Shown here: positions 8,871 through 33,013 of the stretch, piece by piece
Layout: each line of letters begins with the position of its first letter
How positions within the stretch are numbered: position 1 is the stretch's first letter
Virus record (IMG/VR): IMGVR_UViG_3300029240_000028
Span: 1 to 33,248 of that record
DNA length: 33,248 nucleotides
Reading direction: 5' to 3' (one strand)
Origin: a virus
Position numbers and translations under genes: made by a program
Notes under the pieces: generated by a model
What the model was told of the DNA's origin: nothing
Databases searched by the model: none
The model's input: only the letters and a program-made list of their open reading frames with translations

Positions 8871-9065
8871 ATAGAAATGAATTATGAAGAAAGGATTAAA
8901 GATTTAATTTCTAAAAACAACAGATTAGGAAGGACGAATATTCAGTTAATTCAAAAGATTAAAGAAAAAGATGAAACAATACACAATCAAACTTTAGAAT
9001 TGAGGCAATTAAGAAATAAAGTTGGTGAATTAGAAGATAGATTGATGAGGATGTATGTATCATGA
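8871..9065 (+). CDS. Small coiled-coil protein (start is ATA 8871 or ATG 8877)
   Basis: GGAGG at 8858-8862. ATA 8871 is 8 nt downstream and ATG 8877 is 14 nt downstream. Confidence 0.55.
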   Translation: MEMNYEERIKDLISKNNRLGRTNIQLIQKIKEKDETIHNQTLELRQLRNKVGELEDRLMRMYVS

Positions 9066-9388
9066 GCACATATGAAGATGTTAAAAGACACTTCTTGTGT
9101 GAATGTAAAAGCTACACTTATTATGAGCAGAGAATAGCAGAGCTACAAAGGGATGAAGCTATTTATCCTTTAAAAGCCGAGCTATTCTTAGCTCATGCAG
9201 ATTATGCAAGAAGAATGAATTATGTAAAAGACAAATTAAGCCAACTTGATGATACAACTCGAACAATGATTGAGTATAGATATATAAAAGGATTCAGTGC
9301 AGAAAAGACATCTAATATTGTAGGTTATGCAAGAGAAGAAATCCCAAGAAAGATAAACAAGAATTTAAAGAAAGTGCTCACAATGTGA
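9062..9388 (+). CDS. ArpU/RinA-like late-gene regulator (sigma-70 region-4-like HTH)
   Basis: C-terminal IEYRYIKGFSAEKTSNIVGYAREEIPRKINKNLKKV resembles sigma region 4. It sits at the early/late boundary. Confidence 0.55.
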   Translation: MSTYEDVKRHFLCECKSYTYYEQRIAELQRDEAIYPLKAELFLAHADYARRMNYVKDKLSQLDDTTRTMIEYRYIKGFSAEKTSNIVGYAREEIPRKINKNLKKVLTM

Positions 9389-9397
9389 GCATTTTTT
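9375..9397 (+). terminator. Intrinsic terminator overlapping the stop codon of the late-regulator gene
   Basis: TGCTCAC aat GTGAGCA forms a perfect 7-bp stem with a 3-nt loop, followed by TTTTTT. Confidence 0.7.
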
Positions 9398-9414
9398 CAT
9401 GTAATAATTGTTTT

Positions 9415-9490
9415 AGCAGGATAGAGCAGTAGTAGCTCACTAGTCTTATTAGCTAGAGGTCGAATGGTGCAAATCCTTCTCCTGCAACCA
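9415..9490 (+). tRNA. tRNA with anticodon UAU (reads AUA), initiator-like acceptor and D stems, encoded CCA
   Basis: Hand-folded cloverleaf. Acceptor AGCAGGA/TCCTGCA with an A1xA72 mismatch. D stem GAGC/GCTC. Anticodon stem CTAGT/GCTAG. Loop CTTATTA, with anticodon TAT at 9447-9449. Variable loop AGGTC. T arm GAA(T)GG-TGCAAAT-CCTTC with one bulge or mismatch. Ends ACCA. Confidence 0.7.
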
Positions 9491-9570: not shown

Positions 9571-9596
9571 ACCGAGCGTTTGTCTCGGTTCTTTTA
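9571..9596 (+). terminator. Intrinsic terminator downstream of the tRNA
   Basis: ACCGAG cgtttgt CTCGGT followed by TCTTTT. Confidence 0.65.
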
Positions 9597-10511: not shown

Positions 10512-11819
10512 GTGAATAAAATTAGTGAGACTTATCAATCACCAAGATGGACAGGAGAAATCGCAGATTGCTCATTACCAGTAACATTTGATACATATTC
10601 CAACTGTTCATTTGGATGTGTTTATTGTTTTAGCCAATATCAAAGAGGCATTGGTGCAAGTAAAGAAGCATATCTTAATAAAGATGTGAAATGTATCAAT
10701 GTTGAGAAGTGTAAAAAGATTTTCAGTGGAGAAGATACAAAATCACAATTCTATAAATACATTAAAGACAGACGTCCTATTCAATATGGTGGATTATCAG
10801 ACCAATTCGACGGATACGAAAAGAAATATGGTAAAACCTATGAAATGCTCAAGTATTTGAAATCTATTAACTATCCTATTTGTTTTAGCACGAAATCGGC
10901 ATGGGTATTTAACGACCCTAAATATCAAGAATTATTCAAAGGTGCAGATAATTGGAATGTTAAGTTTAGTATCATCACACTAGATGAAGAGGACGCAAGA
11001 AAAATTGAAGTAGGTGTACCAAGTCCAAGAAAAAGACTTGAAGCAATGAAAAAATATACTGAATTATCAAAAGGTGGTGCAACTTTAAGGTTACGTCCAT
11101 TTATTGTAGGAGTTTCAGATAAAACCTATCTAGATTTAATTAGAGAAGCCAAAAAGGCAGGAGCAACGGCAGTTACTACGGAGTTCTTTTGCTTAGAAAT
11201 GCGCTCTATTAAACAAGCTAAGGAGCATTATGATGTGATTAGTGAATGTGCAGGATTTGATATTGTAGATTTCTATCGAAAACATTCAAATGGAAGTGGA
11301 TATTTAAGACTTAACAGAAAAGTAAAGGCTAAATACATTCAAAAGATGAAAGAGTTATGTGATGAATTAGGCATGAGATTCTATGTATCAGACGCACACT
11401 TTAAAGAATGCTCGAATAACTGTTGTTGTTGCGCATTAGACAAGAATTGGGATTACTCAAGAGGAAACTTTAGTGGAGCTTTACAAATTGCAAAGAAACA
11501 TGGAAGAGTACATTGGAAAGATATTGAAAAGGATATGTACTTCTTAGACTTTGAACGTAACAAAGCAATTGGCTTTAATACAAATACATCAGAAACTAGA
11601 GCAAAATATGCAGGAATGACAATGAAGGATTATCTGCATTATTTATGGAATTCACCAAAAGCAGGACAATCACCTTACAAGATTTTTGAGAAAGTCTTAA
11701 AGCCTGTAGGATTTGATGAAAATAATGACATCATTTATGAATACGATAATTCAGTAACATTCTTAAAAAGAACAGAGGAGATTACAGAACTTGAAACAGA
11801 AGAAGCAAGACATGTCTAG
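10512..11819 (+). CDS. Radical SAM enzyme (SplB/COG1533-like architecture), function unknown
   Basis: CX3CX2C motif NCSFGCVYCF near the N-terminus. 435 aa. GTG start after GGAGGA. Confidence 0.75.
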   Translation: MNKISETYQSPRWTGEIADCSLPVTFDTYSNCSFGCVYCFSQYQRGIGASKEAYLNKDVKCINVEKCKKIFSGEDTKSQFYKYIKDRRPIQYGGLSDQFDGYEKKYGKTYEMLKYLKSINYPICFSTKSAWVFNDPKYQELFKGADNWNVKFSIITLDEEDARKIEVGVPSPRKRLEAMKKYTELSKGGATLRLRPFIVGVSDKTYLDLIREAKKAGATAVTTEFFCLEMRSIKQAKEHYDVISECAGFDIVDFYRKHSNGSGYLRLNRKVKAKYIQKMKELCDELGMRFYVSDAHFKECSNNCCCCALDKNWDYSRGNFSGALQIAKKHGRVHWKDIEKDMYFLDFERNKAIGFNTNTSETRAKYAGMTMKDYLHYLWNSPKAGQSPYKIFEKVLKPVGFDENNDIIYEYDNSVTFLKRTEEITELETEEARHV

Positions 11820-13641: not shown

Positions 13642-15045
13642 ATAGAAACATCTAACACACGTAATCCGTGGTTTCAGAATTACCTAAACGATAGAGGGTA
13701 TTATGTAGATACAAACGCAATTGAGATTATTGAATTGTGTAATAAGTGGTATACAAATACCGAAACAGAATTTCATACGGCATACACCTTGAACAATGAG
13801 GAATACACGCTAGACAAGACAGATTTTGCAAAGCGTTTATGCGAGGATGATGCAAACCTTATTGAAATCTTGGATATAAACGCAACAGAGGACAGTACAA
13901 CAAATGATATTATTTCAGACATTCTAACAAAGAATAGATTTGATGTAATGTACAGAAAACAAGTTGAGCAAATGTCTGCAAACGGAACAGTAGGTGCTTA
14001 TGTAACGGTATCAAATGCCGAGATTTATGAAGATGGTACATTCAGTGGAGGAGAAATCAGAATCAACTATTGTGATTCAATGAATATCCTTCCATTGACT
14101 GTTATCAATGATGAAATCGTTGAGGTAGCTTTCGTTGGAGTAAATTATGAAAAATTAAAAAAAGTATATGTGATGGTCATGTTCTTAAAAGGGCAAGATG
14201 AAAGATATATTGCAGAAACACATTACTTTAAAGATACAGGCGAAGAAATAAAAGAGCGTGCTCAGATTGTTCAACTAGATGTTGTAAAGCCGTTTGCAAT
14301 TATGAGAAATGCAAAGGTCAATAACTTACAAATGCAAGGGTACGGCTTACCGAAGATTTGGAGCGCAATCGCTCCACTAAAAACAATTGATTTAACAATG
14401 ACAATGTGGAATCGTGATTTGTTGAAATCAGATAAAATCGTTCTTGTGAATGAAGCATTAATGCAGAAAGACGAGAATGGAAAGATTAAGATGAATCCAC
14501 AAATGAAAAAGATATTTGTTCAGTTAGGTAGAGATAAGCTTCCGGAAGAAAAAGCTTTATGGCAAGAATATAATCCAACAGTAAGAACGGCAGAAGTTGT
14601 TCAATCACTAGAAACTGCGTTAAGTATCTTATCTATGATGTTTGGATTTGGTACAAAGAAATATACGTTTGAAAGTGGAAGAATCGTAACGGCTACAGAA
14701 TATATCGGTGAGAATCAAGACGCAATGAAGGAAGTTAACTCACAACGTAAAGAATCTACTGCATATATTCAAGATATCATTCAAGCAATAGCGTACTTCT
14801 ATGAATTGACACAAGGCAGAAAGCTTAATATCAATTCATTAGACATTGCTATTGATTATGATGATACATACATTGAAGATAAACAAAGCACTGCACAAGC
14901 GTTAAGGAATGACGCATTAACATTTGATATTCCAAGATTGAAGATTATGTATTTTATGAAGCAATACGGCTTTACTGAAGAAGAAGCAACGGAGTTATTA
15001 AATGAAGAAATTCAAGATGATGGAGAGGAGGATGAAGAAGAATAG
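13642..15045 (+). CDS. Portal protein (SPP1 Gp6-like), proposed ATA start
   Basis: The frame opens at 13639, right after the TerL stop. ATA 13642 lies 6 nt after GGAGG (13631-13635). The N-terminus NPWFQNYLNDRGYYVDTNAIEIIELCNKWY is portal-like, and the first canonical start is TTG 13735. Confidence 0.9.
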   Translation: METSNTRNPWFQNYLNDRGYYVDTNAIEIIELCNKWYTNTETEFHTAYTLNNEEYTLDKTDFAKRLCEDDANLIEILDINATEDSTTNDIISDILTKNRFDVMYRKQVEQMSANGTVGAYVTVSNAEIYEDGTFSGGEIRINYCDSMNILPLTVINDEIVEVAFVGVNYEKLKKVYVMVMFLKGQDERYIAETHYFKDTGEEIKERAQIVQLDVVKPFAIMRNAKVNNLQMQGYGLPKIWSAIAPLKTIDLTMTMWNRDLLKSDKIVLVNEALMQKDENGKIKMNPQMKKIFVQLGRDKLPEEKALWQEYNPTVRTAEVVQSLETALSILSMMFGFGTKKYTFESGRIVTATEYIGENQDAMKEVNSQRKESTAYIQDIIQAIAYFYELTQGRKLNINSLDIAIDYDDTYIEDKQSTAQALRNDALTFDIPRLKIMYFMKQYGFTEEEATELLNEEIQDDGEEDEEE

Positions 15046-15851
15046 CAACTACATATTTTCCATTCGTCTCAAGAAATGGCGATAGATTAGTACTATATGA
15101 CGCTTTCAGAAGATTATTCTCAAGCTACTTTACGAATGGCGTATTCGTTGATGATTCTAGTTCGGACCATTTAAGAGTTGAGAAAGCTCAAGGCTTAACA
15201 TTAACAGTTAAAGCAGGACGAGCAAATATTAATGGAGCGTTCTATTGGCAGAAAGATGACGAAACCATCACACTAGAAAAGAATAACGCAACTAAAAGTT
15301 ACAATATCATTCTTAGATTGAATGATAATGACGCATACAGAAATATCACATTGATTGCTAGTGATATCAATGATGGAATCACAAGAAGTGATTCTATTTA
15401 TGATTTAGTGTTAGCTACAGTTACGGTTACAGGCAATGCAAGTGAAGTAAAAGGTTCAGATATTACAGATACAAGACTAGATTCTACACGTTGTGGAGCA
15501 GTTACAAGCGCAATTAAAAGCGTACAATCGTTGGATTTGTTCACTCAAGTTACTGAGCTATTCAAAGAAATTAAGGCTCAGAATGAATCTGAAATGAACG
15601 CAAATAGAACGGAATTTAATGATTGGTTTGAAACTGTAAAAGATACGTTAGACGCAAATACGGCAGGAAAACTATCTAACAGAATTTCAAACATTGAAAA
15701 GATGATTATGGAGAATCACTTTACTACGATTCTATTAACCGAAGATGGAACGTTAGTAGATGAGAATGGGCATGAGATTCTAGCGGATTGGGCGTATGAA
15801 GTTGATGACGGTGAAGTAGGCAAAGATTGGTCTTACAAGGTGAAATCATGA
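15042..15851 (+). CDS. Tail-fibre-like structural protein, proposed ATA start
   Basis: ATA GCA at 15042 overlaps the portal stop as ATAG, with GAGGAGG 10 nt upstream. About 92 codons (ATTYFPFVSRNGDR...) precede the first canonical start, TTG 15318. Confidence 0.8.
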   Translation: MATTYFPFVSRNGDRLVLYDAFRRLFSSYFTNGVFVDDSSSDHLRVEKAQGLTLTVKAGRANINGAFYWQKDDETITLEKNNATKSYNIILRLNDNDAYRNITLIASDINDGITRSDSIYDLVLATVTVTGNASEVKGSDITDTRLDSTRCGAVTSAIKSVQSLDLFTQVTELFKEIKAQNESEMNANRTEFNDWFETVKDTLDANTAGKLSNRISNIEKMIMENHFTTILLTEDGTLVDENGHEILADWAYEVDDGEVGKDWSYKVKS

Positions 15852-16484: not shown

Positions 16485-17093
16485 ATAGCTATTGAATATT
16501 TAGATAAGAGTGGATTGACGCTCTTAATCAGTAAAATTAAATCGGCGTTAGGTGGGAAAGTTGATGTTGAAATTGGTAAAGGCTTATCAACAAATGACTA
16601 CACAAGCGCAGAAAAACAAAAGTTAAGTGGTATCGCAAATGGTGCTCAAGTGAACGTGATTGAGTCGGTAAAGGTAAATGGTACGAAGTTAACGCCAAGC
16701 TCAAAAGCCGTAGATGTTACAGTACCGACAAAGACATCGCAATTAACGAATGACAGTGGATATCAGTCGGCAACGAGCGTTGAGTCAATTATCACGGCTA
16801 AAGGGTATCAAACGCAATCACAAGTACAATCGTTGATTAATTCGGCAGTAGGTAATATTACATCAATTAGATATGAAAAGGTAACAAGCTTACCTGCTAC
16901 AGGTTCAAATGGTGTTATTTATTTGGTTGCACATTCACATGGAACGCAAGATATTTATGATGAATATATTTGGTTATCAGAAACTAAAACATTTGAAAAG
17001 ATTGGTAATACAGACATTGATTTATCGGCATATGTTAAGAAATCAGAATTAACGGCGATTACAACAAACGATTTAAACACAATGTGGGGTTAG
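16485..17093 (+). CDS. Tail-fibre protein, proposed ATA start
   Basis: ATA GCT at 16485 lies 7 nt after GGAGG (16473-16477). The N-terminus AIEYLDKSGLTLLISKIK and the motif GKGLSTNDYTSAEKQKLSGI are fibre motifs. The first canonical start is TTG 16515. Confidence 0.8.
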   Translation: MAIEYLDKSGLTLLISKIKSALGGKVDVEIGKGLSTNDYTSAEKQKLSGIANGAQVNVIESVKVNGTKLTPSSKAVDVTVPTKTSQLTNDSGYQSATSVESIITAKGYQTQSQVQSLINSAVGNITSIRYEKVTSLPATGSNGVIYLVAHSHGTQDIYDEYIWLSETKTFEKIGNTDIDLSAYVKKSELTAITTNDLNTMWG

Positions 17094-20069: not shown

Positions 20070-20654
20070 ATGAAAAACATTATTGAAATTTTAAAAGAAT
20101 CAAACATTGAATTAACCAAAGAACAAGAGGACTCAATTACAAAGCTAGTAAATGACAACTATAAGACGATTGCAGAGTTCGACAAGCAGAAAGAAAAGCT
20201 ATCTTTAGCAGAGAACAACGCAAAGGAAATTCAAACAAAGTTTGATAATTTCAAAAAAAGCTATGATGGTGTTGATGTAGAAGAACTTAGAAATAAAATC
20301 AATACATTGACGAATGATATTGATACTCAAAAGACAAGCTACGAAACTCAGATTAGCAAAATGAATCTTGATTCTGTATTAAGTGCAAAAGCTAAAGAAT
20401 ACGGATGTAAAGATTTTGATTTAGCAAAATCACAATTCAACTATGACGATTTGCTTAAATCAAAAGACCAAACAAATGATATTGACAAAGCTTTCAAGAG
20501 TTTGAAAGAGAATAAGCCAATCTTATTTGATGAAGAACAAAATAAGCCTACTGCTACAGGCAATATTGTTGGAAGCAGTGGACAAGGAGAAAACCCAAAC
20601 GCAGAAGATTTATTATTAAGACAAGTAATGGGTTTAACTACAGAAAAGAAATAA
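20070..20654 (+). CDS. Capsid scaffolding protein (DUF4355-like)
   Basis: Helical, acidic, 194 aa, immediately upstream of the major capsid gene. Confidence 0.7.
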   Translation: MKNIIEILKESNIELTKEQEDSITKLVNDNYKTIAEFDKQKEKLSLAENNAKEIQTKFDNFKKSYDGVDVEELRNKINTLTNDIDTQKTSYETQISKMNLDSVLSAKAKEYGCKDFDLAKSQFNYDDLLKSKDQTNDIDKAFKSLKENKPILFDEEQNKPTATGNIVGSSGQGENPNAEDLLLRQVMGLTTEKK

Positions 20655-20668
20655 GGAGGATTTAATTA

Positions 20669-21538
20669 ATACCAAATGAAATTGCGTTAGCTAAAACGTA
20701 TGTCTCAAATTTGGATGAGGTATATAAGTTAGCATCAGTAACAGGTGATTTAAATGCAGACGCTACAATGGTAAGAGCAGGAGCGAACGCAAAAGAAATC
20801 ATCTATCCACAAATTTCTGTTAAAGGTTTAGGAAACTATGATAGAAATAGTGGTTATACATCTAACTCAGTGAAATTAGAATGGAAAACTGCAACATTTG
20901 ACTACGATAGAGGAACTAAAATCTCAGTTGATACACAAGACAATGCAGAATCAATGAATATTGCGTTCGGTAGAGCAGGAGCGGAATTAATGCGTACAAA
21001 GGTTGCACCGGAAGCAGACGCTTACACATTCGCTAAGATTGCAGGCACAACAGGAATCACAAAAGTTTCAGAAGATTATGCAAGTGCAGAAGAGTTCTTG
21101 AGTGCATTATTAAAAGCAGTTACTAAAATGGATGAGGATGAAGTGCCAAGTGAACAACGTATCTTGTATTCTACTCCTACATTATTGAATAGCGTTAAAG
21201 CTTTAGATACTTACAAATCACGTGAAGCTTTACAAGGATTCGCAAAGGTAGTTCCTGTACCTGCTAGTCGTTTCTATACAAAGATTAAATTGTTGAGTGG
21301 AGCAGATACAGAAGAAGAAGGTGGATATACTAAAGCAGAGGATGGACACGTTATCAACTTCTTGATTGTTCATAAACCTTCTGTTATGAAATGGGATAAA
21401 CACATTGTTTCAAATGTAATTCCTGCAAGCAATAACATTGAATCAGATTCAGATGTATTGAAATATCGTAAGTATGGAATCGTTGATGTATACGCAAATA
21501 AGGTAGCAGGTATTTACTTATCTGCTAGTGCGAAGTAA
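20669..21538 (+). CDS. Major capsid protein, proposed ATA start
   Basis: The frame opens at 20666. ATA 20669 lies 9 nt after GGAGG (20655-20659). The N-terminus PNEIALAKTYVSNLDEVYKLAS.T and the later GLGNYDRNSGY ... FDYDRG motifs are typical. The first canonical start is TTG 20711, which has no SD. Confidence 0.85.
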   Translation: MPNEIALAKTYVSNLDEVYKLASVTGDLNADATMVRAGANAKEIIYPQISVKGLGNYDRNSGYTSNSVKLEWKTATFDYDRGTKISVDTQDNAESMNIAFGRAGAELMRTKVAPEADAYTFAKIAGTTGITKVSEDYASAEEFLSALLKAVTKMDEDEVPSEQRILYSTPTLLNSVKALDTYKSREALQGFAKVVPVPASRFYTKIKLLSGADTEEEGGYTKAEDGHVINFLIVHKPSVMKWDKHIVSNVIPASNNIESDSDVLKYRKYGIVDVYANKVAGIYLSASAK

Positions 21539-22007: not shown

Positions 22008-22423
22008 CAGGATTCTTTGAGGATTCAATTACACTTGTAAATCACTACTATGATACATTGACGAGAGAAGATAGGTTTCAAGCTTCTATCCTTGATAAAT
22101 GTATGTGGAGACAATCTACTGTTAGAACTGCAAACGGTAATATTCTGAGCATAGCCACATCCACAAATATTACCATTCTATATCGTGAGGGATATGTTGA
22201 ACCTTACGAATATGCAAAGCTTTCAAATGATGAGAAACAAAAGCACTTCACATTAAATACAGATAAAACAGATTTCGTATTCTTTGGAGAAGTCGAAGAA
22301 GATTTATCTAACATCAAGGCAATCAATGAAGCTAAAAAGAAATACAAATGGACAACGATTCAAAGCGTAACAGATTGTACGAATGTCGATATGTTGAAGC
22401 ATTGGGAGGTTGTCGGTCAATAG
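22004..22423 (+). CDS. Minor capsid / head-tail joining protein (Minor_capsid_1-like)
   Basis: ATG 22004 overlaps the upstream stop. Call based on position and size. Confidence 0.6.
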   Translation: MTGFFEDSITLVNHYYDTLTREDRFQASILDKCMWRQSTVRTANGNILSIATSTNITILYREGYVEPYEYAKLSNDEKQKHFTLNTDKTDFVFFGEVEEDLSNIKAINEAKKKYKWTTIQSVTDCTNVDMLKHWEVVGQ

Positions 22424-22782
22424 GAATTAAAGTCAAACTTGATGTTGAATCAATTCCCCAAATTAAGCAATCAAGAGGACTAGAAGAACGTGGACGAGTT
22501 CAACAAATGATTGATTCTGAAGTCATTAGGCTTATGTCCCCTTATACGCCTAGAGACACAGGAGCATTAATTAACTCGGCTACAAGATTAACTCAAATCG
22601 GTAGTGGATTAGTAAAGCAAGGTGGGCCAAGTGCTCCATATGCTAGACGGTGGTATTACAACAAAGAGAATGCTCATTTCGTAGGAGGTAAAACAGACCA
22701 TTGGTTTAAAAAAGCTATGCGAAATGGTGGGACAGAAACAATCTTAAAGAAAGCGCAACAAATGATAGGAGACGGAGAATGA
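22420..22782 (+). CDS. HK97 gp10-like / Minor_capsid_2-like connector protein, proposed ATA start
   Basis: ATA 22420 overlaps the upstream stop as ATAG and lies 10 nt after GGGAGG (22404-22409). GIKVKLDVESIPQIKQ... and MSPYTPRDTGALINS ... APYARRWYY motifs. Track ORF begins at ATG 22348, deep inside the upstream gene, no SD seen. Confidence 0.75.
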   Translation: MGIKVKLDVESIPQIKQSRGLEERGRVQQMIDSEVIRLMSPYTPRDTGALINSATRLTQIGSGLVKQGGPSAPYARRWYYNKENAHFVGGKTDHWFKKAMRNGGTETILKKAQQMIGDGE

Positions 22783-23198
22783 CAGTATCAAAAGCATTGA
22801 TTCAATGGCTATACGGCTACGGAAATATACAGATAGATGAACGTATTGAAACGGATGTTTTAGCGCAACAAGCTATCTCTTATGCATTGTATAAAGAACC
22901 TAATGCAATTGTAGATACATACATTGACGGTTCTCAAATGCGTACAGAATACTATACATTTCTAGCACGTAGGAATACACAAATCGAAGCCGAAAGGCAA
23001 GACAACAATTCCTTTTTAGAAGAATTGGAAGAATGGATTGACGAAAAGAATTTAAATGGAGAATTACCACAACTAGACGGAAACAGACATTGTGATGATG
23101 TTTCCGTTTCAAGTGGTTTATATCTATACACAAATGAGGATAGTCAAGCAGTATATGCGTTAACTATTCAAATCAAATACAGAAAGGAGCTTAATTAA
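22779..23198 (+). CDS. Minor_capsid_3-like / tail completion protein
   Basis: ATGA overlap with the upstream gene. 139 aa. Position before the major tail gene. Confidence 0.6.
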   Translation: MTVSKALIQWLYGYGNIQIDERIETDVLAQQAISYALYKEPNAIVDTYIDGSQMRTEYYTFLARRNTQIEAERQDNNSFLEELEEWIDEKNLNGELPQLDGNRHCDDVSVSSGLYLYTNEDSQAVYALTIQIKYRKELN

Positions 23199-23704
23199 TA
23201 GCAACTCAAGGAACTGAAGTAACTACAGGACAGACAGTCAAGAAGTATATGATTGGATTGTTCTTACAAATGGGAGAAGGTTACAAGCGAATTAAAAAGT
23301 CTACAACTTTAGATATTTCATTCAATAGTGAAACTGAAACGTATGACTTTATCGCAGATAAGAACCCAACAGAATCATTAAAGAGTTATTCACCTCAGAT
23401 TTCGCAAGATTTAACAATGATTAAAGGCGAAGATGACTTTGAATACATTTACGAACAAATGATGAAATCCGTACCAAACAACGAAGAAGTAAATACAAAA
23501 GCTTTACTTGTATTCATGTTTGACGGAGACAAAACAAAAGGCTATAAAGCGTGGGAAGTTGACGCTAAATTGATTTTCGACACATTGAGTGGCGTCGATT
23601 CAAAAATCAACTTCAACATTAACTTTGCAAGTGATATTCGTGTCGGTACTGCAAAGGTAGCAGATGGAACAGTAACATTTACAGAAGGTACATCAGAAGT
23701 ATAA
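23198..23704 (+). CDS. Major tail protein, proposed ATA start
   Basis: ATA GCA at 23198 overlaps the upstream stop as TAATA and lies 8 nt after AAAGGAG (23183-23189). The track start ATG 23249 has no SD. Confidence 0.75.
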   Translation: MATQGTEVTTGQTVKKYMIGLFLQMGEGYKRIKKSTTLDISFNSETETYDFIADKNPTESLKSYSPQISQDLTMIKGEDDFEYIYEQMMKSVPNNEEVNTKALLVFMFDGDKTKGYKAWEVDAKLIFDTLSGVDSKINFNINFASDIRVGTAKVADGTVTFTEGTSEV

Positions 23705-24665: not shown

Positions 24666-27245
24666 ATATCAGACGGAACATTAAAGTTTGATACAAAGAT
24701 AGACACAAGTGGTCTAGAGAATGGTATTAAATCTGTAAAGGTTGTATCAAGTGAAGCCACAAATGCTATCAAAGATACTTCAAAAGCGATTGATAAGCTA
24801 GGTTCTGATGGTTCAAAAGCACCGCCAAAAATTAAAGATAAACTTAAAGATTTAAATGATGAGCAAAAGAATACACAAACAGAAACGCAAGAAACAGGTT
24901 CAAAGTTTGATGTATTTAAACAAGTAGGAAGCAGTGCCTTAGAGTCAATTCAAGGTGGATTTGACGGACTATTAGGAAAGATTCAGAATATTAGTCCGGA
25001 AGCTACTGCAATCACTGAAACTTTAACAGGTTTAGGCGTTGGAGGTGTCGTTGGTGTCACTGCCGTAGCAGGAGCTATCGGTGGTATGGCACTAGCTATT
25101 AAAACAGGTGTTAATCAAGCTATGGAACTAGATGACGCTATGGCTAAATTCCAAGCTCAAACAGGTGCTTCAAGCAATGAAATGAATAAATTTAAAAACA
25201 TTGCTCGTGATGTTTGGTCAAACAATTTCGGCGAAAATGTTTCAGACGTAGCCGATATGATGGCACGTGTCAAACAACAAATGCAAGGTATAAGTGATGT
25301 CGATTTAAAGAATGTAACTGAGGATTTATTGACATTAAGAGACACATTCGGAATGGACGAGAACGAAACATTAAGAGGTGCTCAACAATTAATGAAGCAG
25401 TTCGGAATTACTTCTCAAGAAGCTTTTGACCTTATGGCTACAGGTGCTCAGAATGGTTTGAATAAGTCGGATGAATTAGGCGATAACATTTCGGAATACT
25501 CCGGTAAATTTGCTCAAGCAGGATATTCGGCAAAAGAATATTTCCAATTAATGCAAAATGGTTTAGATGGTGGAGCTTATAACCTTGATAAAGTTAACGA
25601 CGCAATCAATGAAGTTACCACAAGGTTAGTTGATGGAACTATCGAAGGAGCTTTAGATAGTTTTGATATCAAGACGCAAGATGTATTTAAGGCTTGGCAA
25701 GAAGGAAGAGCAACTCAGAAAGATGTTGTAAATGCGATTGTAGAAGATATTTCAAAGACTACAAATGAGCAAGAAAAGTTGAATAAATCGGCAACGGCTT
25801 TCGGTACAATGGGAGAAGATTTCAACGCCGGATTTATTGAATCCTTAACTACGGTAGGAAATAAATATAAAGATGTAGAAGGAGCAATGGATAAAGTCAA
25901 AGATATTGCAAATGGTGGCTTAAAGAACGCTTTAAGTGGCTTAGGACGTACATTTCTTGATTCATTTACTCCAATAGGCGAACTTATTACCCCTATTCTT
26001 GCAGGTATCATCGGATTAATTACAGTAGCTATACAAGGTATTCAACAAGGATTTGCTAAAGTTGGTGAAGTTATTTCAAGTGTATTAAGTAAGATTGATA
26101 CAAGTGGAATTACAGAATTAACAAGTCAAGTTTCCGAAGTGTTAGCTCCTGCGTTTGATGAGGTAAAAAAAGCGATTGACGAAATGAAAGTTGCACTTGA
26201 GCCTATTGCAAAAGAAATTTTAGGTAAAATTGGTAACGCAATTCAAAATGTTGTTAACCAAGCTCAAAAGATTCTTAGCGTTGTAGGACCACCGATTCTA
26301 GCAATTATTAAGAAGATTATTCAAACAGTTATCGGCATGATTCCTGTAATAACATCTATCCTTCAAATTGTGGGAAGTGTGGTAAGTGGAATCATTTCAT
26401 TTATAACTATGGTTGTGACGTATGTAGGAACTGCGATTGCAACTATACTTGGATTTATCATGCCTATTGTTCAAATCGTAGCTACAATTGTAGCGAATAT
26501 TTGGTCTGTAATATTAACGGTTGCTCAGAATATTTGGAGTAAGGTTAGTGAAATAGTTACTGCAATTATTGGATTCGTAAGCAATTTGTTTAAAACAGTT
26601 TCGGACATCATAAACAATATTTGGAGCAAGATTCAAGATACAATGAACAGAGTAGGAGATAAAGTTAAAGGCGTTATTGATAATATCAATAAATATTTCA
26701 ATAATGTTAAGAGTACTGTTTCTGATGTATTTAATGGCATTTGGTCTAAAGTTCAAGATGTCATGGACAATGTAGGAAATAAAATTTCAAATGTTCTACA
26801 AGGAATACAGAATGCATGGAGCGGTTTAAAAGGGTTTGTAGGTGGTGTATTCAGTGGAATTGAAGGAGCAGTTAGTTCATTAGTTGGAAGTGTAAAAGGA
26901 ATGGTAAATGGAGTTATCGGTGGCATTAACGGCGCAATCGGTATCATCAATAAGATTCCCGGAGTTCACATTGGAAAGATTCCAAGACTAGAGCGTGGTG
27001 GTGTATTGAAGCGTGGTCAGATTGGTTTGTTGGAAGGTAACGGAGCAGAAGCAGTCGTACCATTAGAAAAAAATAAAGCGTGGATTCGTGCCGTTGCTAA
27101 AGATATGGCTCAAATCATGCCTAGCGTAACAACAAATAACAATGGACAGACTATCAACTTCTACAATAAAGTTCAAAGTCCGGATGAAATCGCTAGAATG
27201 TTACGTATGCAAGCAAGATATGGATATGGAGGTGTAGTTCAATAG
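24666..27245 (+). CDS. Tape measure protein, proposed ATA start (859 aa)
   Basis: An in-frame TGA at 24663 is immediately followed by ATA 24666, 8-11 nt after AAAGGAGGTGG. SDGTLKFDTKIDTSGLENG is a typical tape-measure N-terminus. There are 140 open codons with no ATG/GTG/TTG before the track start at 25086. Confidence 0.9.
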   Translation: MSDGTLKFDTKIDTSGLENGIKSVKVVSSEATNAIKDTSKAIDKLGSDGSKAPPKIKDKLKDLNDEQKNTQTETQETGSKFDVFKQVGSSALESIQGGFDGLLGKIQNISPEATAITETLTGLGVGGVVGVTAVAGAIGGMALAIKTGVNQAMELDDAMAKFQAQTGASSNEMNKFKNIARDVWSNNFGENVSDVADMMARVKQQMQGISDVDLKNVTEDLLTLRDTFGMDENETLRGAQQLMKQFGITSQEAFDLMATGAQNGLNKSDELGDNISEYSGKFAQAGYSAKEYFQLMQNGLDGGAYNLDKVNDAINEVTTRLVDGTIEGALDSFDIKTQDVFKAWQEGRATQKDVVNAIVEDISKTTNEQEKLNKSATAFGTMGEDFNAGFIESLTTVGNKYKDVEGAMDKVKDIANGGLKNALSGLGRTFLDSFTPIGELITPILAGIIGLITVAIQGIQQGFAKVGEVISSVLSKIDTSGITELTSQVSEVLAPAFDEVKKAIDEMKVALEPIAKEILGKIGNAIQNVVNQAQKILSVVGPPILAIIKKIIQTVIGMIPVITSILQIVGSVVSGIISFITMVVTYVGTAIATILGFIMPIVQIVATIVANIWSVILTVAQNIWSKVSEIVTAIIGFVSNLFKTVSDIINNIWSKIQDTMNRVGDKVKGVIDNINKYFNNVKSTVSDVFNGIWSKVQDVMDNVGNKISNVLQGIQNAWSGLKGFVGGVFSGIEGAVSSLVGSVKGMVNGVIGGINGAIGIINKIPGVHIGKIPRLERGGVLKRGQIGLLEGNGAEAVVPLEKNKAWIRAVAKDMAQIMPSVTTNNNGQTINFYNKVQSPDEIARMLRMQARYGYGGVVQ

Positions 27246-28111
27246 ATATCAATAAGGTAAGAGTTATCGTCCGTAGGGATGATGGCAAAGAATTTGAAAT
27301 CGACAACAAAAGATGGAGAATACCATCTAGTGATGGTTTAGATGGATTTGATTATGTAGCACCTTCATATACAACACAAGACAATGCATTCGGAAACGGT
27401 GCTAGATTAATCGGTTCACGTATTCCAACAAAAGAAAGAAGTGTGAAAGCTACCTTTAAAGGCTCGCTAGAAGAAAAAAGAGAAGAAAGGGAGAAGCTAC
27501 GGCGCTTCTTCCAATATTCTCATGTATTTGATGTGATAGTTGAGTATATGGGAGAAAAGAAATATTGCAGAGGAAGACTATATGCGTATAGCTTGCCTAC
27601 CGTTAATATCTACAAAGATTTAGAGCTTAACTTTACGATTCTATGCACGCAACCTTTATTGCTTTCATTTGATGATTTCGCAAGGAATATCGCAGAAATT
27701 GGTGAAGGTTTAGCGTTCAATTTTGAAATACCGGAAACAGGCGTAAACTTTGGAACGTTTACATTCGCTAGAGAAATCTATATTGATAATCAAGGCGATA
27801 CAGAAACATACTGTAGAGCCGTTATTGAAGCGTTTGGAGAGGTTACAAATCCGAAACTATTCAACAAAGATAAATATATTCGTGTATTAGATACGCTACA
27901 CAATGGTGATGTGTTAGAAATTGATTTAGTTTCTGAGCCTATTTCGATTAAAAAAAATGGTGTGAATTGTATAGGCAAAGTAGACAGAACCTCATCATTC
28001 AATGATATGACGATTCAGTTAGGCGAGAATATCATAGGATACACGGCAGACAATGGAGATACGAACCTAGCTTGTACGGTTTATTACAATGAAAGGTATT
28101 TAGGTTTATAG
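27242..28111 (+). CDS. Distal tail protein (Dit), proposed ATA start
   Basis: ATA 27242 overlaps the tape-measure stop as ATAG and lies 9 nt after GGAGG (27228-27232). There are 67 open codons without a canonical start before GTG 27443. Confidence 0.8.
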   Translation: MDINKVRVIVRRDDGKEFEIDNKRWRIPSSDGLDGFDYVAPSYTTQDNAFGNGARLIGSRIPTKERSVKATFKGSLEEKREEREKLRRFFQYSHVFDVIVEYMGEKKYCRGRLYAYSLPTVNIYKDLELNFTILCTQPLLLSFDDFARNIAEIGEGLAFNFEIPETGVNFGTFTFAREIYIDNQGDTETYCRAVIEAFGEVTNPKLFNKDKYIRVLDTLHNGDVLEIDLVSEPISIKKNGVNCIGKVDRTSSFNDMTIQLGENIIGYTADNGDTNLACTVYYNERYLGL

Positions 28112-29138: not shown

Positions 29139-29639
29139 ATAGAAAAGAAAAATGGAGGATTTAAACAAATAACAAGAAGTATGTATTTTCTAGACAAGAT
29201 GAATGCAATTGGTGGTGTAGCCGTTGCCGTATTAACATACGTATTAGGTGAGCATTGGTATTTATTTGCGTTCTTCTTATTTATGAACGTCGTGGATTAT
29301 ATTACAGGGTGCATGAAGTCGGCGATTAATCACAAAATCAATAGCAATAAAGGATGGATTGGAGTCCTTAAAAAGCTAGGCTATTGGATTATGATTGTAG
29401 TTGCGTTCACGTTCAGTGCATTCTTGGTAGAGATTGGAAAAATGCTAGGAATTGATTTCCATGTAACTACATTATTAGGTTGGTTTGTATTGGCTTCTTT
29501 ATGTATTAATGAAGTGCGTAGCATTATTGAGAACCTTGTACAATGTGGATATAGTGTGCCTAGTGTATTAACTAAAGGTTTGGAAGTAGCGGATAAAATC
29601 GTTAACGAAGACAATGACGAATCAAGTACCTTGGAATAA
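29139..29639 (+). CDS. Holin (toxin-secretion/phage-lysis holin family), probable ATA start
   Basis: Multi-TM protein with NVVDYITG and LCINEVRSIIEN motifs. ATA 29139 lies 8 nt after AAGGAG. The track start GTG 29130 lies inside that SD, and the internal ATG has no good SD. Confidence 0.75.
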   Translation: MEKKNGGFKQITRSMYFLDKMNAIGGVAVAVLTYVLGEHWYLFAFFLFMNVVDYITGCMKSAINHKINSNKGWIGVLKKLGYWIMIVVAFTFSAFLVEIGKMLGIDFHVTTLLGWFVLASLCINEVRSIIENLVQCGYSVPSVLTKGLEVADKIVNEDNDESSTLE

Positions 29640-32251: not shown

Positions 32252-33013
32252 ATAAATTATCAAAATTTCAAAAAAGCCGTATTAGGCAAAGCTTTCGACA
32301 TTGACGGATACTATGGTGCTCAATGTTGGGACGGATTCGCAAAGTACATGATTGATTTAGGATATAAGGCTATCCATTGTACAACGAGCAAATTTGTGAA
32401 AGACATTTGGAACAATCGAAAAACAAATGGTATCTTGAACTATTGTAATGAGGTCTCAATTATGCAACCTGGAGACATTGCGGTATTTAAAGAAGTAGCA
32501 GGATGGACTCCATATTCACATATCGCAATCTTTGATTCTGATATTGACGGAAAGCAAGGATGGTTCTTAGGACAGAATCAAGGTGGAAAGAATGGAGCAT
32601 TTACCTTATGTAAATTGCCTTATTATGCTACATTCGATACTGCGTTTAGACCTAAATGTTTCGCAAATAGTGGAGCTACAAGTCCAAGCATTCCACAACC
32701 TGTAGAAGCAATTGACCAAATTTTGCACGCAGGTTCTTACGTTACATCCGTACAAATGAAGATTGGAAATCAAGGCTTGAAACAAATCAATGGCGATTTA
32801 TGCGCATACCTTGCACCATTGGGTGGTTGGTTTCCGATTCGCTTAGTTGATAAGGTACGTAATTCCGATGGATATAATGACAATGTATTGCATACCACAA
32901 ATGCCGTTGTCTATGTAACTAGAATTCGTGTTGATGAAGTCAATGTACAAAAGAATCTTGCGAAAATCGGTGGAATTTGGGTAAATTGTGGACCTTTAAT
33001 TGAAGTTGCATAA
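32252..33013 (+). CDS. Endolysin: N-terminal CHAP domain plus C-terminal SH3b-like wall-binding domain, proposed ATA start
   Basis: The catalytic-Cys motif DGYYGAQCWDGF lies upstream of the track start at 32348. The frame opens at 32237 with no canonical start. ATA 32252 lies 9 nt after GGAGG (32238-32242). The catalytic-His motif is YSHIAIF. Confidence 0.85.
   Translation: MNYQNFKKAVLGKAFDIDGYYGAQCWDGFAKYMIDLGYKAIHCTTSKFVKDIWNNRKTNGILNYCNEVSIMQPGDIAVFKEVAGWTPYSHIAIFDSDIDGKQGWFLGQNQGGKNGAFTLCKLPYYATFDTAFRPKCFANSGATSPSIPQPVEAIDQILHAGSYVTSVQMKIGNQGLKQINGDLCAYLAPLGGWFPIRLVDKVRNSDGYNDNVLHTTNAVVYVTRIRVDEVNVQKNLAKIGGIWVNCGPLIEVA

Follow-up and report, generated by a model that had tools for sequence, protein, structure and literature searches.

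Translation that starts away from the canonical codons has been described in a handful of settings. The bacterial infC gene starts at AUU, a rare near-cognate codon of a kind that serves single autoregulated genes and is read by the normal initiator, and tRNAfMet mutants initiating at amber codons or with Val, Ile or Phe were reportedly obtained at an earlier date in the RajBhandary and Schulman laboratories. In animal mitochondria, AUA initiation is carried out by tRNAMet(f5CAU) (PMC2655697). Orthogonal initiation has been engineered in E. coli with anticodon-mutant initiator tRNAs such as i-tRNA(AAC) (bioRxiv 10.1101/2021.05.25.445580), while gut phages can recode stop codons through phage-encoded suppressor tRNAs (Borges et al., bioRxiv 10.1101/2021.08.26.457843). 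Here we analyze a stretch of viral DNA of 33,248 nucleotides (nt; IMG/VR record IMGVR_UViG_3300029240_000028, hereafter the window), in which the major capsid protein gene opens with a Shine–Dalgarno (SD) sequence followed by ATA, and which also encodes an initiator-like tRNA with the anticodon UAU. Our evidence, all of it comparative and drawn from sequences, suggests that ATA very probably serves this phage as an additional start codon of its own, at which some ten late genes begin, and that the phage supplies its own matching tRNA as the decoder.

Full-text literature searches led to AUA initiation in mitochondria, to the recoding of stop codons and to orthogonal initiators made by engineering, and to no phage initiator tRNA that naturally bears an anticodon other than CAU. 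Like the engineered anticodon-mutant initiators, the phage tRNA combines an initiator-type body with a changed anticodon and a complementary non-AUG codon behind an SD. Unlike them, it is natural and conserved in a clade, some 10 genes have a switched start codon, and it has U37 (with A at mRNA position −1) and lacks the anticodon stem of three G:C pairs. In the engineered systems, the initiating amino acid follows the anticodon. As in stop-codon recoding, a phage tRNA with a nonstandard anticodon would alter codon reading in low-GC gut phages, the codons concerned cluster in structural and lysis genes (here, ATA starts are enriched among late genes, holin and endolysin included), and gating of late expression or of the lysogeny switch is plausible. 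The difference is that stop codons are reassigned in elongation, whereas here a start codon would be added and the sense decoding of ATA as Ile left unchanged. Mitochondria and infC likewise use AUA or AUU as an initiation codon; however, AUA is Met everywhere in mitochondria and is read through a modified C34, while the phage has a separate tRNA with an encoded U34 and keeps ATA as Ile internally, and, unlike single genes of the infC type, a whole gene set would be served by the phage tRNA.

An earlier note on this DNA had proposed that the capsid gene depends on an ATA start. We compared this start across 108 fetched loci, of which 39 sequences with at least 84% capsid identity, from IMG/VR, Logan and ENA, are referred to below as the clade. 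The elements concerned are the following.

20655 to 20659, plus strand: capsid SD GGAGG, extended to AGGAGG by the last A of the scaffold stop codon and kept in all clade members.
20668 to 20672, plus strand: capsid start site A-ATA-C, with ATA at 20669 to 20671 and A at −1, orthologous to the ATG of distant relatives.
20669 to 21538, plus strand: major capsid protein gene, 289 codons, PHROG 422.

The stop codon of the scaffold gene (TAA, 20652–20654) abuts the GGAGG. The capsid frame opens at 20666, as the note had it: an in-frame TAA (20663–20665) is followed by TTA (20666) and then by ATA, which sits 9 nt past the GGAGG, the spacer being read directly in the sequence. After ATA 20669 the frame continues CCA AAT GAA and so on, that is, PNEIALAKTYVSNLDEVYKLAS. 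The first canonical start, TTG 20711, is codon 15 of the ATA-initiated frame and indeed has no SD, the 20 nt upstream of it containing neither GGAG nor GAGG.

In tblastn searches of deposited phages, the capsid homologues aligned from query residues 1–2, and ATA-CCA-AAT aligned codon for codon with the ATG-GCx/AAT-AAC (“MAN”, “MNN”) of four relatives showing 41–51% identity, namely Eggerthella phage PMBT5, Ruminococcus phage RG-TP1 and bajarodcaudo virus 4 (annotated) and MT835795 (unannotated). These relatives came from protein-level searches, as the capsid region gave no match to deposited phages at the DNA level. ATA occupies the capsid start codon in 39/39 clade members, and the relatives with 67% capsid identity or less that align to the start codon have ATG there. 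The assignment as an HK97-fold major capsid protein relies on a full-length match to phrog_422 (E = 9e-64; residues 3–288 against profile positions 3–294) and on the location after a scaffold gene; the homologues are annotated as major head protein.

The gene might instead begin at TTG 20711 (or, in relatives, at an ATG that is codon 34), with the upstream 14 codons forming an untranslated leader. Public capsid calls would agree with this, since those listed measure 256, 272, 275 or 283 amino acids, not 289 (RefSeq, GenBank, IMG, ENA, Logan; P0375–P0388, WP_337526991.1, WP_288536604.1, DAF49942.1), and gene callers assume the same; the closest database proteins are likewise short, at 275 (a 1224-member cluster) and 256 residues. 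However, the strong SD lies 9 nt before ATA and not before TTG. The loci L005, L006 and L007 have an SD and ATA at the orthologous codon. Since L006 and L007 read CTT at codon 15, TTG cannot be the conserved capsid start; it is also for this reason that gene callers fall back there on an ATG 33 codons downstream. Finally, codons 2–14 show synonymous differences between lineages while encoding conserved residues, they align with the N-terminal end of ATG-initiated homologues with identities as low as 34%, and profile matches begin at residues 2–4 of the ATA-initiated proteins (residue 3 in the window). A start at TTG thus appears very improbable, and ATA 20669 is almost certainly the capsid start. 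The dependence on ATA proposed in the note is borne out by the orthologous ATG of the relatives, by the clade-wide conservation of the codon and of the residues that follow it, and by the lack of an alternative start.

Two other arrangements were considered for this region and rejected. Seven bases into the capsid gene, at 20676, an ATG in another frame opens a mini open reading frame of 4 codons (MKLR, then a stop; 20676–20690), but a frameshift from it does not hold, as the ATG is absent in relatives such as L005; it is probably incidental. Similarly, a scaffold–capsid readthrough fusion conflicts with the different frames of the two genes in the window and with the in-frame TAA at 20663–20665 between them.

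While the ATA start itself stood, the note had treated the capsid gene alone, and this proved too narrow, as the capsid gene is one of about 11 with such a start. When all plus-strand open frames of the window were scanned for a strong SD followed by ATA, many long frames were found to open in this way, far 5′ of any ATG, GTG or TTG. Such starts occur in 11/56 genes, one of which (8871) is ambiguous. In SD-proximal positions, ATA is seen 10 times and ATG 11 times. Every ATA start has a strong SD, 6–11 nt upstream, and several share bases with the stop codon of the preceding gene, as ATAG or TAATA, much like the familiar ATGA overlap. The genes other than the capsid gene are as follows, with the codons found at the orthologous position.

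8871 to 9065, plus strand: small gene, ambiguous, with SD and ATA and an in-frame ATG two codons later; ATA in 32/32.
13642 to 15045, plus strand: portal gene, ATA start behind AGGAGG with a 6 nt spacer; ATA in 38/38 loci.
15042 to 15851, plus strand: head protein gene, ATA overlapping the portal stop (ATAG), first canonical start 92 codons on; ATA in 38/38, profile match from residue 3.
16485 to 17093, plus strand: phrog_24103 gene of unknown function, ATA start; 16 ATA and 4 ATG, in identical context.
22420 to 22782, plus strand: minor head protein gene, ATA overlapping the upstream stop (ATAG); 97 ATA, 2 ATG.
23198 to 23704, plus strand: phrog_3099 gene, probably a tail protein, ATA overlapping the upstream TAA; 82 ATA, 3 ATG.
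24666 to 27245, plus strand: tape measure protein (TMP) gene, ATA start, first ATG 140 codons later; ATA in 37/37.
27242 to 28111, plus strand: distal tail protein (Dit) gene, ATA overlapping the TMP stop (ATAG); 31 ATA.
29139 to 29639, plus strand: holin-family gene (PF05105), ATA start; 25 ATA, 1 ATG.
32252 to 33013, plus strand: endolysin (CHAP) gene, ATA start; ATA in 22/22.

All 11 sites are conserved across the clade, and at four of them (16485, 22420, 23198 and 29139) ATA and ATG alternate in an otherwise identical context. The ATA starts favor the late region, with 10/34 late as opposed to 1/22 early genes (p = 0.036). In the Logan and ENA calls, TMP is listed with 719 residues instead of 859 and Dit with 227 instead of 289.

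A single G-to-A change turns ATG into ATA, and the capsid ATA could in principle be an artifact of sequencing or assembly, or a mutation that inactivated the gene in a prophage undergoing decay. The comparative data already refute this: the same ATA recurs in 39 sequences that have diverged from one another and come from independent samples and assemblers, as well as in the 1224-member protein cluster, ten further genes present the same pattern, and some contigs appear to be circular, excised genomes. All 56 genes of the window are intact under table 11, with TAA, TAG and TGA all acting as stops and no stop read as sense. We attach a negligible probability to this explanation.

Start ATA and internal ATA codons behave differently when substitutions are compared clade-wide. 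The former is unchanged in 97.9% of cases and its sole alternative is ATG (9 cases), never ATT or ATC. The latter is unchanged in 74.5% of cases and exchanges mainly with ATT, ATC, GTA and TTA, ATG falling outside the eight commonest alternatives; internal ATG, for its part, is unchanged in 93.7% of cases and has a substitution spectrum distinct from that of internal ATA. This divergence implies that ATA has not been reassigned and that it acts as an initiation codon at these sites, internal ATA behaving, by the look of its exchanges, as an ordinary Ile codon. A mitochondrion-like code, with ATA read as methionine throughout, would account for the exchange of start ATA with ATG only, yet the internal codons leave it next to no probability.

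The absence of ATT and ATC at the starts also bears on a more serious alternative, according to which the ATA starts are genuine but are read by the host fMet-tRNA(CAU) with a third-position mismatch, the phage tRNA(UAU) being an elongator tRNA-Ile for AUA codons. The strong SD at every ATA start would help such reading, as would the optimal spacing and, at the ATAG and TAATA overlaps, translational coupling. However, ATT and ATC are as near-cognate as ATA for a CAU anticodon, and neither is ever exchanged with a start ATA. The set accepted at the starts, ATA and ATG, seems to be just what a U34 anticodon can pair with: U34 pairs with A or G, which would explain why these two codons are interchangeable and ATT and ATC are not. 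As for an elongator role, ATA makes up 8.8% of the Ile codons in the ATA-start genes, 20% in other late genes, 27% in early genes and 11% in the host flanks. With internal ATA lowest in the ATA-start genes, the tRNA is mismatched to the needs of elongation, and codon compensation was rejected as its function. The counts of internal ATA versus ATT plus ATC are 23 versus 237 in the ATA-start genes, 63 versus 247 in other late genes and 47 versus 124 in early genes, and the capsid gene has no internal ATA.

The note had argued that a capsid start at ATA called for a dedicated decoding mechanism. A candidate for this role lies in the same window and carries initiator-type identity elements.

9415 to 9490, plus strand: initiator-like tRNA, anticodon UAU, with A1xA72, G2:C71, C3:G70, A73, A11:U24, U37 and an encoded CCA.

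ARAGORN run on the window reported no tRNA, a false negative, as demonstrated by the ARAGORN matches in relatives, by BLAST and by Rfam. In the tiled relatives ARAGORN reports exactly one tRNA, with the anticodon TAT and the label tRNA-Ile, a label that would favor the elongator assignment; BLAST from the relatives' tRNA retrieves a 91% identical copy at 9415–9490; and the Rfam family RF00005 matches this segment (48.8 bits, E = 1.7e-9), the only RNA family found in the window. The tRNA is present in 39 loci, as 12 sequence variants of three types (A, B and C). Its cloverleaf is 94% paired, compared with 39–56% when the partners are slid, and 8 pairs show compensatory double changes; 0/500 shuffles reach the observed values.

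Position 1:72 forms a standard pair in 0/13 sequences: the window has A1xA72, type B has G1xA72 and type C has C1xA72 (the variant L128 carries the canonical C1xA72), and the position is unpaired in all 12 phage variants. G2:C71, C3:G70 and A73 are invariant in all variants, and A11:U24 is found in 13/13. G2:C71 and C3:G70, with A73, are determinants for the formyltransferase. The D stem, GAGC/GCUC, is identical to that of the E. coli initiator metZ. The anticodon is UAU, suited to reading AUA, in 12/12 variants, and differs in this from the CAU of an initiator. Position 37 is U in lineages A, B and C; a purine (t6A37) is expected at this position for ANN codons, and an elongator tRNA-Ile would have one. 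BLAST of the phage tRNA against E. coli genomes gave no match, so we aligned it directly to the annotated K-12 tRNAs. Variants A2 and C match metZ at 59 of 77–78 positions, as compared with 43–49 for ileX and metT, while the window's own variant, A1, separates weakly (52/78 for metZ vs 47/79 and 51/82 for ileX and metT). Besides the features already named, the phage tRNA shares with metZ G30:C40, the AGGUC variable loop and the encoded CCA; it differs in having UAU instead of CAU, U37 instead of A37, one or two of the three G:C pairs and, in type A, altered D and T loops. The nearest tRNAs in deposited phages are annotated as tRNA-Met, and none of the deposited phage genomes searched carries a tRNA(UAU) of this type.

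Neither the Watson–Crick 1:72 pair nor the body of an elongator tRNA-Ile or tRNA-Met was thus found, and the acceptor and D-stem features would argue against an EF-Tu-type use. Judging from its structure and identity elements, the tRNA at 9415–9490 is a real, initiator-like tRNA, derived from a bacterial initiator and bearing UAU in place of CAU.

The occurrence of this tRNA parallels that of the ATA starts. Using a pattern made of the initiator-like D arm and the UAU anticodon loop, we found matches in 42 of 2.9 million IMG/VR contigs, all but two from this phage group, and in 44 contigs of a metagenome collection. We saw no clade locus that covers the whole tRNA site and lacks the tRNA; in two loci the contig breaks off inside the site. 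When SD-led open frames were counted, the clade loci had 358 ATA-only and 596 canonical frames, and the phages with a type B or C tRNA had 23 and 28, respectively. By contrast, there were 3 ATA-only versus 269 canonical frames in the capsid outgroups, whose capsid start is ATG, corresponding to about 1% ATA-only starts in these relatives without the tRNA, and 4 versus 52 in the tRNA-less terminase outgroups. The capsid gene starts with ATA in the type B and type C lineages too. Hence, the dedicated decoding proposed in the note gains support from a co-occurrence that extends over three lineages. Reading by the host initiator fits these counts poorly, inasmuch as the tRNA-less relatives have equally strong SDs and hardly any ATA-only starts.

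Initiator-like tRNA(UAU) genes with A37 were also observed in unrelated contigs, in two contigs each (L194/L215, with 64% GC; L237/L278; L259/L274; L235/L276; L238/L243); the L259/L274 tRNA has C1xA72 and the full set of three G:C pairs. Singleton tRNA(UAU) genes may be errors in ordinary tRNAfMet genes. A related phage group, L065–L070, whose capsid is 54% identical and starts with ATG, encodes a tRNA(CAU) at about 2259–2332, some 0.7 kb upstream of the capsid gene. Its D stem, GAGC/GCTC, is of the initiator type, and its anticodon stem has three G:C pairs. It could correspond to a precursor of the present arrangement, in which the phage initiator tRNA kept the standard anticodon.

The base preceding the start codon provides a further link between the tRNA and the ATA starts. 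In the window, A is found at −1 in 11/11 ATA starts and 21/45 canonical starts (p = 0.0013), and before 37% of internal ATA codons; in lineages B and C the figures are 13/14 and 11/21 for ATA and canonical starts. Overall, A precedes 24/25 ATA starts and is complementary to U37 of the phage tRNA, not to A37 of the standard initiator, which again disfavors decoding by the latter. In E. coli, complementarity between initiator position 37 and mRNA position −1 raises initiation, and this includes an engineered A37U initiator that favors −1 A (Höllerer and Jeschek, PMC10018350). The phage arrangement would be a similar quadruplet pairing, with the difference that the effect in that study was modest and modulatory, whereas here the combination of U37 and −1 A is native and nearly invariant. 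We also observed an enrichment of G at +4 after ATA starts (8/11 and 8/14, vs 8/37 and 2/21 after ATG or canonical starts). The start consensus reads A-AUA-G, and at four of the sites in the window the TAG or TAA contained in it terminates the upstream gene.

Several points weigh against decoding by the phage tRNA. The three consecutive G:C pairs at 29–31:39–41, a hallmark of bacterial initiators, are lacking, as would suit an elongator: the window has A29:U41, G30:C40 and U31.G39, and across the sequences 29:41 is A:U in 9 and G:C in 4, 30:40 is G:C in all and 31:39 is U.G in 11. The elbow of the common type A is aberrant, with a D loop AGUAGUA devoid of GG, a T loop UGCAAAU (G at 55) and one bulged base in the T stem, features that also explain why ARAGORN missed the gene. 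U34 removes the main determinant for methionyl-tRNA synthetase, and U37 precludes t6A37, a determinant for the E. coli isoleucyl-tRNA synthetase. Lineages A, B and C may share one evolutionary origin, in which case the co-occurrence counts are not independent. The late genes mix ATA and ATG starts, and the candidate at 8871 lies upstream of the tRNA. Moreover, an AUA mRNA placed in an optimized initiation region performed like AUG in vitro with the normal machinery (PMC5499595), suggesting that the tRNA may not be strictly needed. As to the elbow, the D and T loops seem to have changed together, types B and C keeping GG and UUCGAUU.

On balance, we consider it unlikely that the host initiator reads the ATA starts while the phage tRNA works in elongation, mainly in view of the 1:72 position, the other initiator-type elements, the greater closeness of variants A2 and C to metZ and the scarcity of internal ATA in the very genes that start with it. 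Decoding of the ATA starts by the phage tRNA is, in our estimation, highly likely.

From the ATA starts and their conservation, the structure and identity elements of the tRNA, the co-occurrence and the −1 bias, as read from sequence and comparison, we infer the following mechanism. The GGAGG located 6–11 nt upstream would set the P site of the 30S subunit on A-AUA. There, U34-A35-U36 of the phage tRNA would pair with AUA and U37 would probably pair with the −1 A, invariant in the window, so that four base pairs offset the all-A/U codon. Through the unpaired 1:72, G2:C71, C3:G70, A73 and A11:U24, the tRNA would be accepted as an initiator by the host formyltransferase, by initiation factor 2 and by the P site, and would avoid elongation. 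The tRNA would accordingly have to be expressed, charged (most likely with Ile, possibly with Met), formylated and used at the ATA sites. It is conceivable, and we offer it tentatively, that an Ile-charged, formylated tRNA(UAU, U37) starts the capsid, portal, tape measure, holin and endolysin proteins with (formyl-)isoleucine and constitutes a translational gate on late genes and lysis. The purpose would be to make the translation of late and lysis genes dependent on a phage product, whether for temporal or lysogeny gating or for independence from the host initiator.

The surroundings of the tRNA and of the capsid gene include the following elements.

9375 to 9391, no strand assigned: terminator-like hairpin followed by a T-run, between the gene at 9062–9388 and the tRNA.
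9571 to 9589, plus strand: terminator-like hairpin, downstream of the tRNA.
20070 to 20654: scaffold gene (phrog_194), upstream of the capsid gene.

The motif TGnNATAAT (9400–9408), which is conserved in type A, ends 6 nt before tRNA position 1; the upstream region of type B differs. It could be an extended −10-like promoter, making leaderless transcription of the tRNA possible. The tRNA lies at the early/late boundary, between a small protein gene (9062–9388) and the genes for DUF6275, ParB-like, radical SAM and terminase proteins. The 108-residue protein encoded at 9062–9388 (plus strand), directly upstream of the tRNA, gives faint matches to sigma-70 region 4 (E about 1e-3) and may be a regulator of late-gene transcription. 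About 1 kb downstream of the tRNA, 10512–11819 (plus strand) encodes a 435-residue radical SAM protein with CSFGCVYC (a CxxxCxxC motif), whose nearest families are PA0069/Rv2578c and “radical SAM mobile pair protein B”. We rejected it as a partner of the tRNA, since it showed no detectable link to tRNA and no PDB relative by sequence. PHROGs, Pfam and NCBIfam searches with the ca. 30 largest genes, including those flanking the tRNA, found no phage-encoded synthetase, formyltransferase, initiation factor-like protein or tRNA modifier.

PHROG annotation identified Erf, a replication initiator, SSB, a ParB-like protein, terminase, portal, scaffold, capsid, TMP, Dit, holin and endolysin. An integrase and a helix-turn-helix repressor are found just beyond the left end of the window (L279–L284), indicating that the phage is temperate. 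Integrated copies adjoin different host genes depending on the sample (rplQ–rpoA; SseB–TldD/PmbA; MatE), while in other contigs the lysis and tail genes follow directly on the integrase, and these contigs look like circular, excised genomes. The named members of the capsid cluster are from Holdemanella sp., and the RpoA of a host flank shares 73% identity with its Faecalitalea cylindroides counterpart; a scan of genome contigs yielded no close prophage. By these indications, the source is a temperate siphovirus of Holdemanella (Erysipelotrichaceae), a gut bacterium.

For the annotation of these phages, the consequence is that gene callers that accept ATG, GTG and TTG alone systematically cut short or misplace the principal structural and lysis genes, at a cost of 140 residues for the tape measure protein and 92 for the head protein, and with listed capsid calls of 256–283 rather than 289 residues. 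If the proposed role of the tRNA is true, this would be, as far as our literature searches show, the first natural expansion of the start codons by a dedicated initiator tRNA, and a natural counterpart of the orthogonal initiation systems of synthetic biology. The tRNA and its A-AUA context would then be ready-made parts for engineering, and natural non-methionine initiation in bacteria would become directly testable. Initiation would also join the ways in which phages alter decoding, for which the known case so far is stop-codon recoding by suppressor tRNAs.

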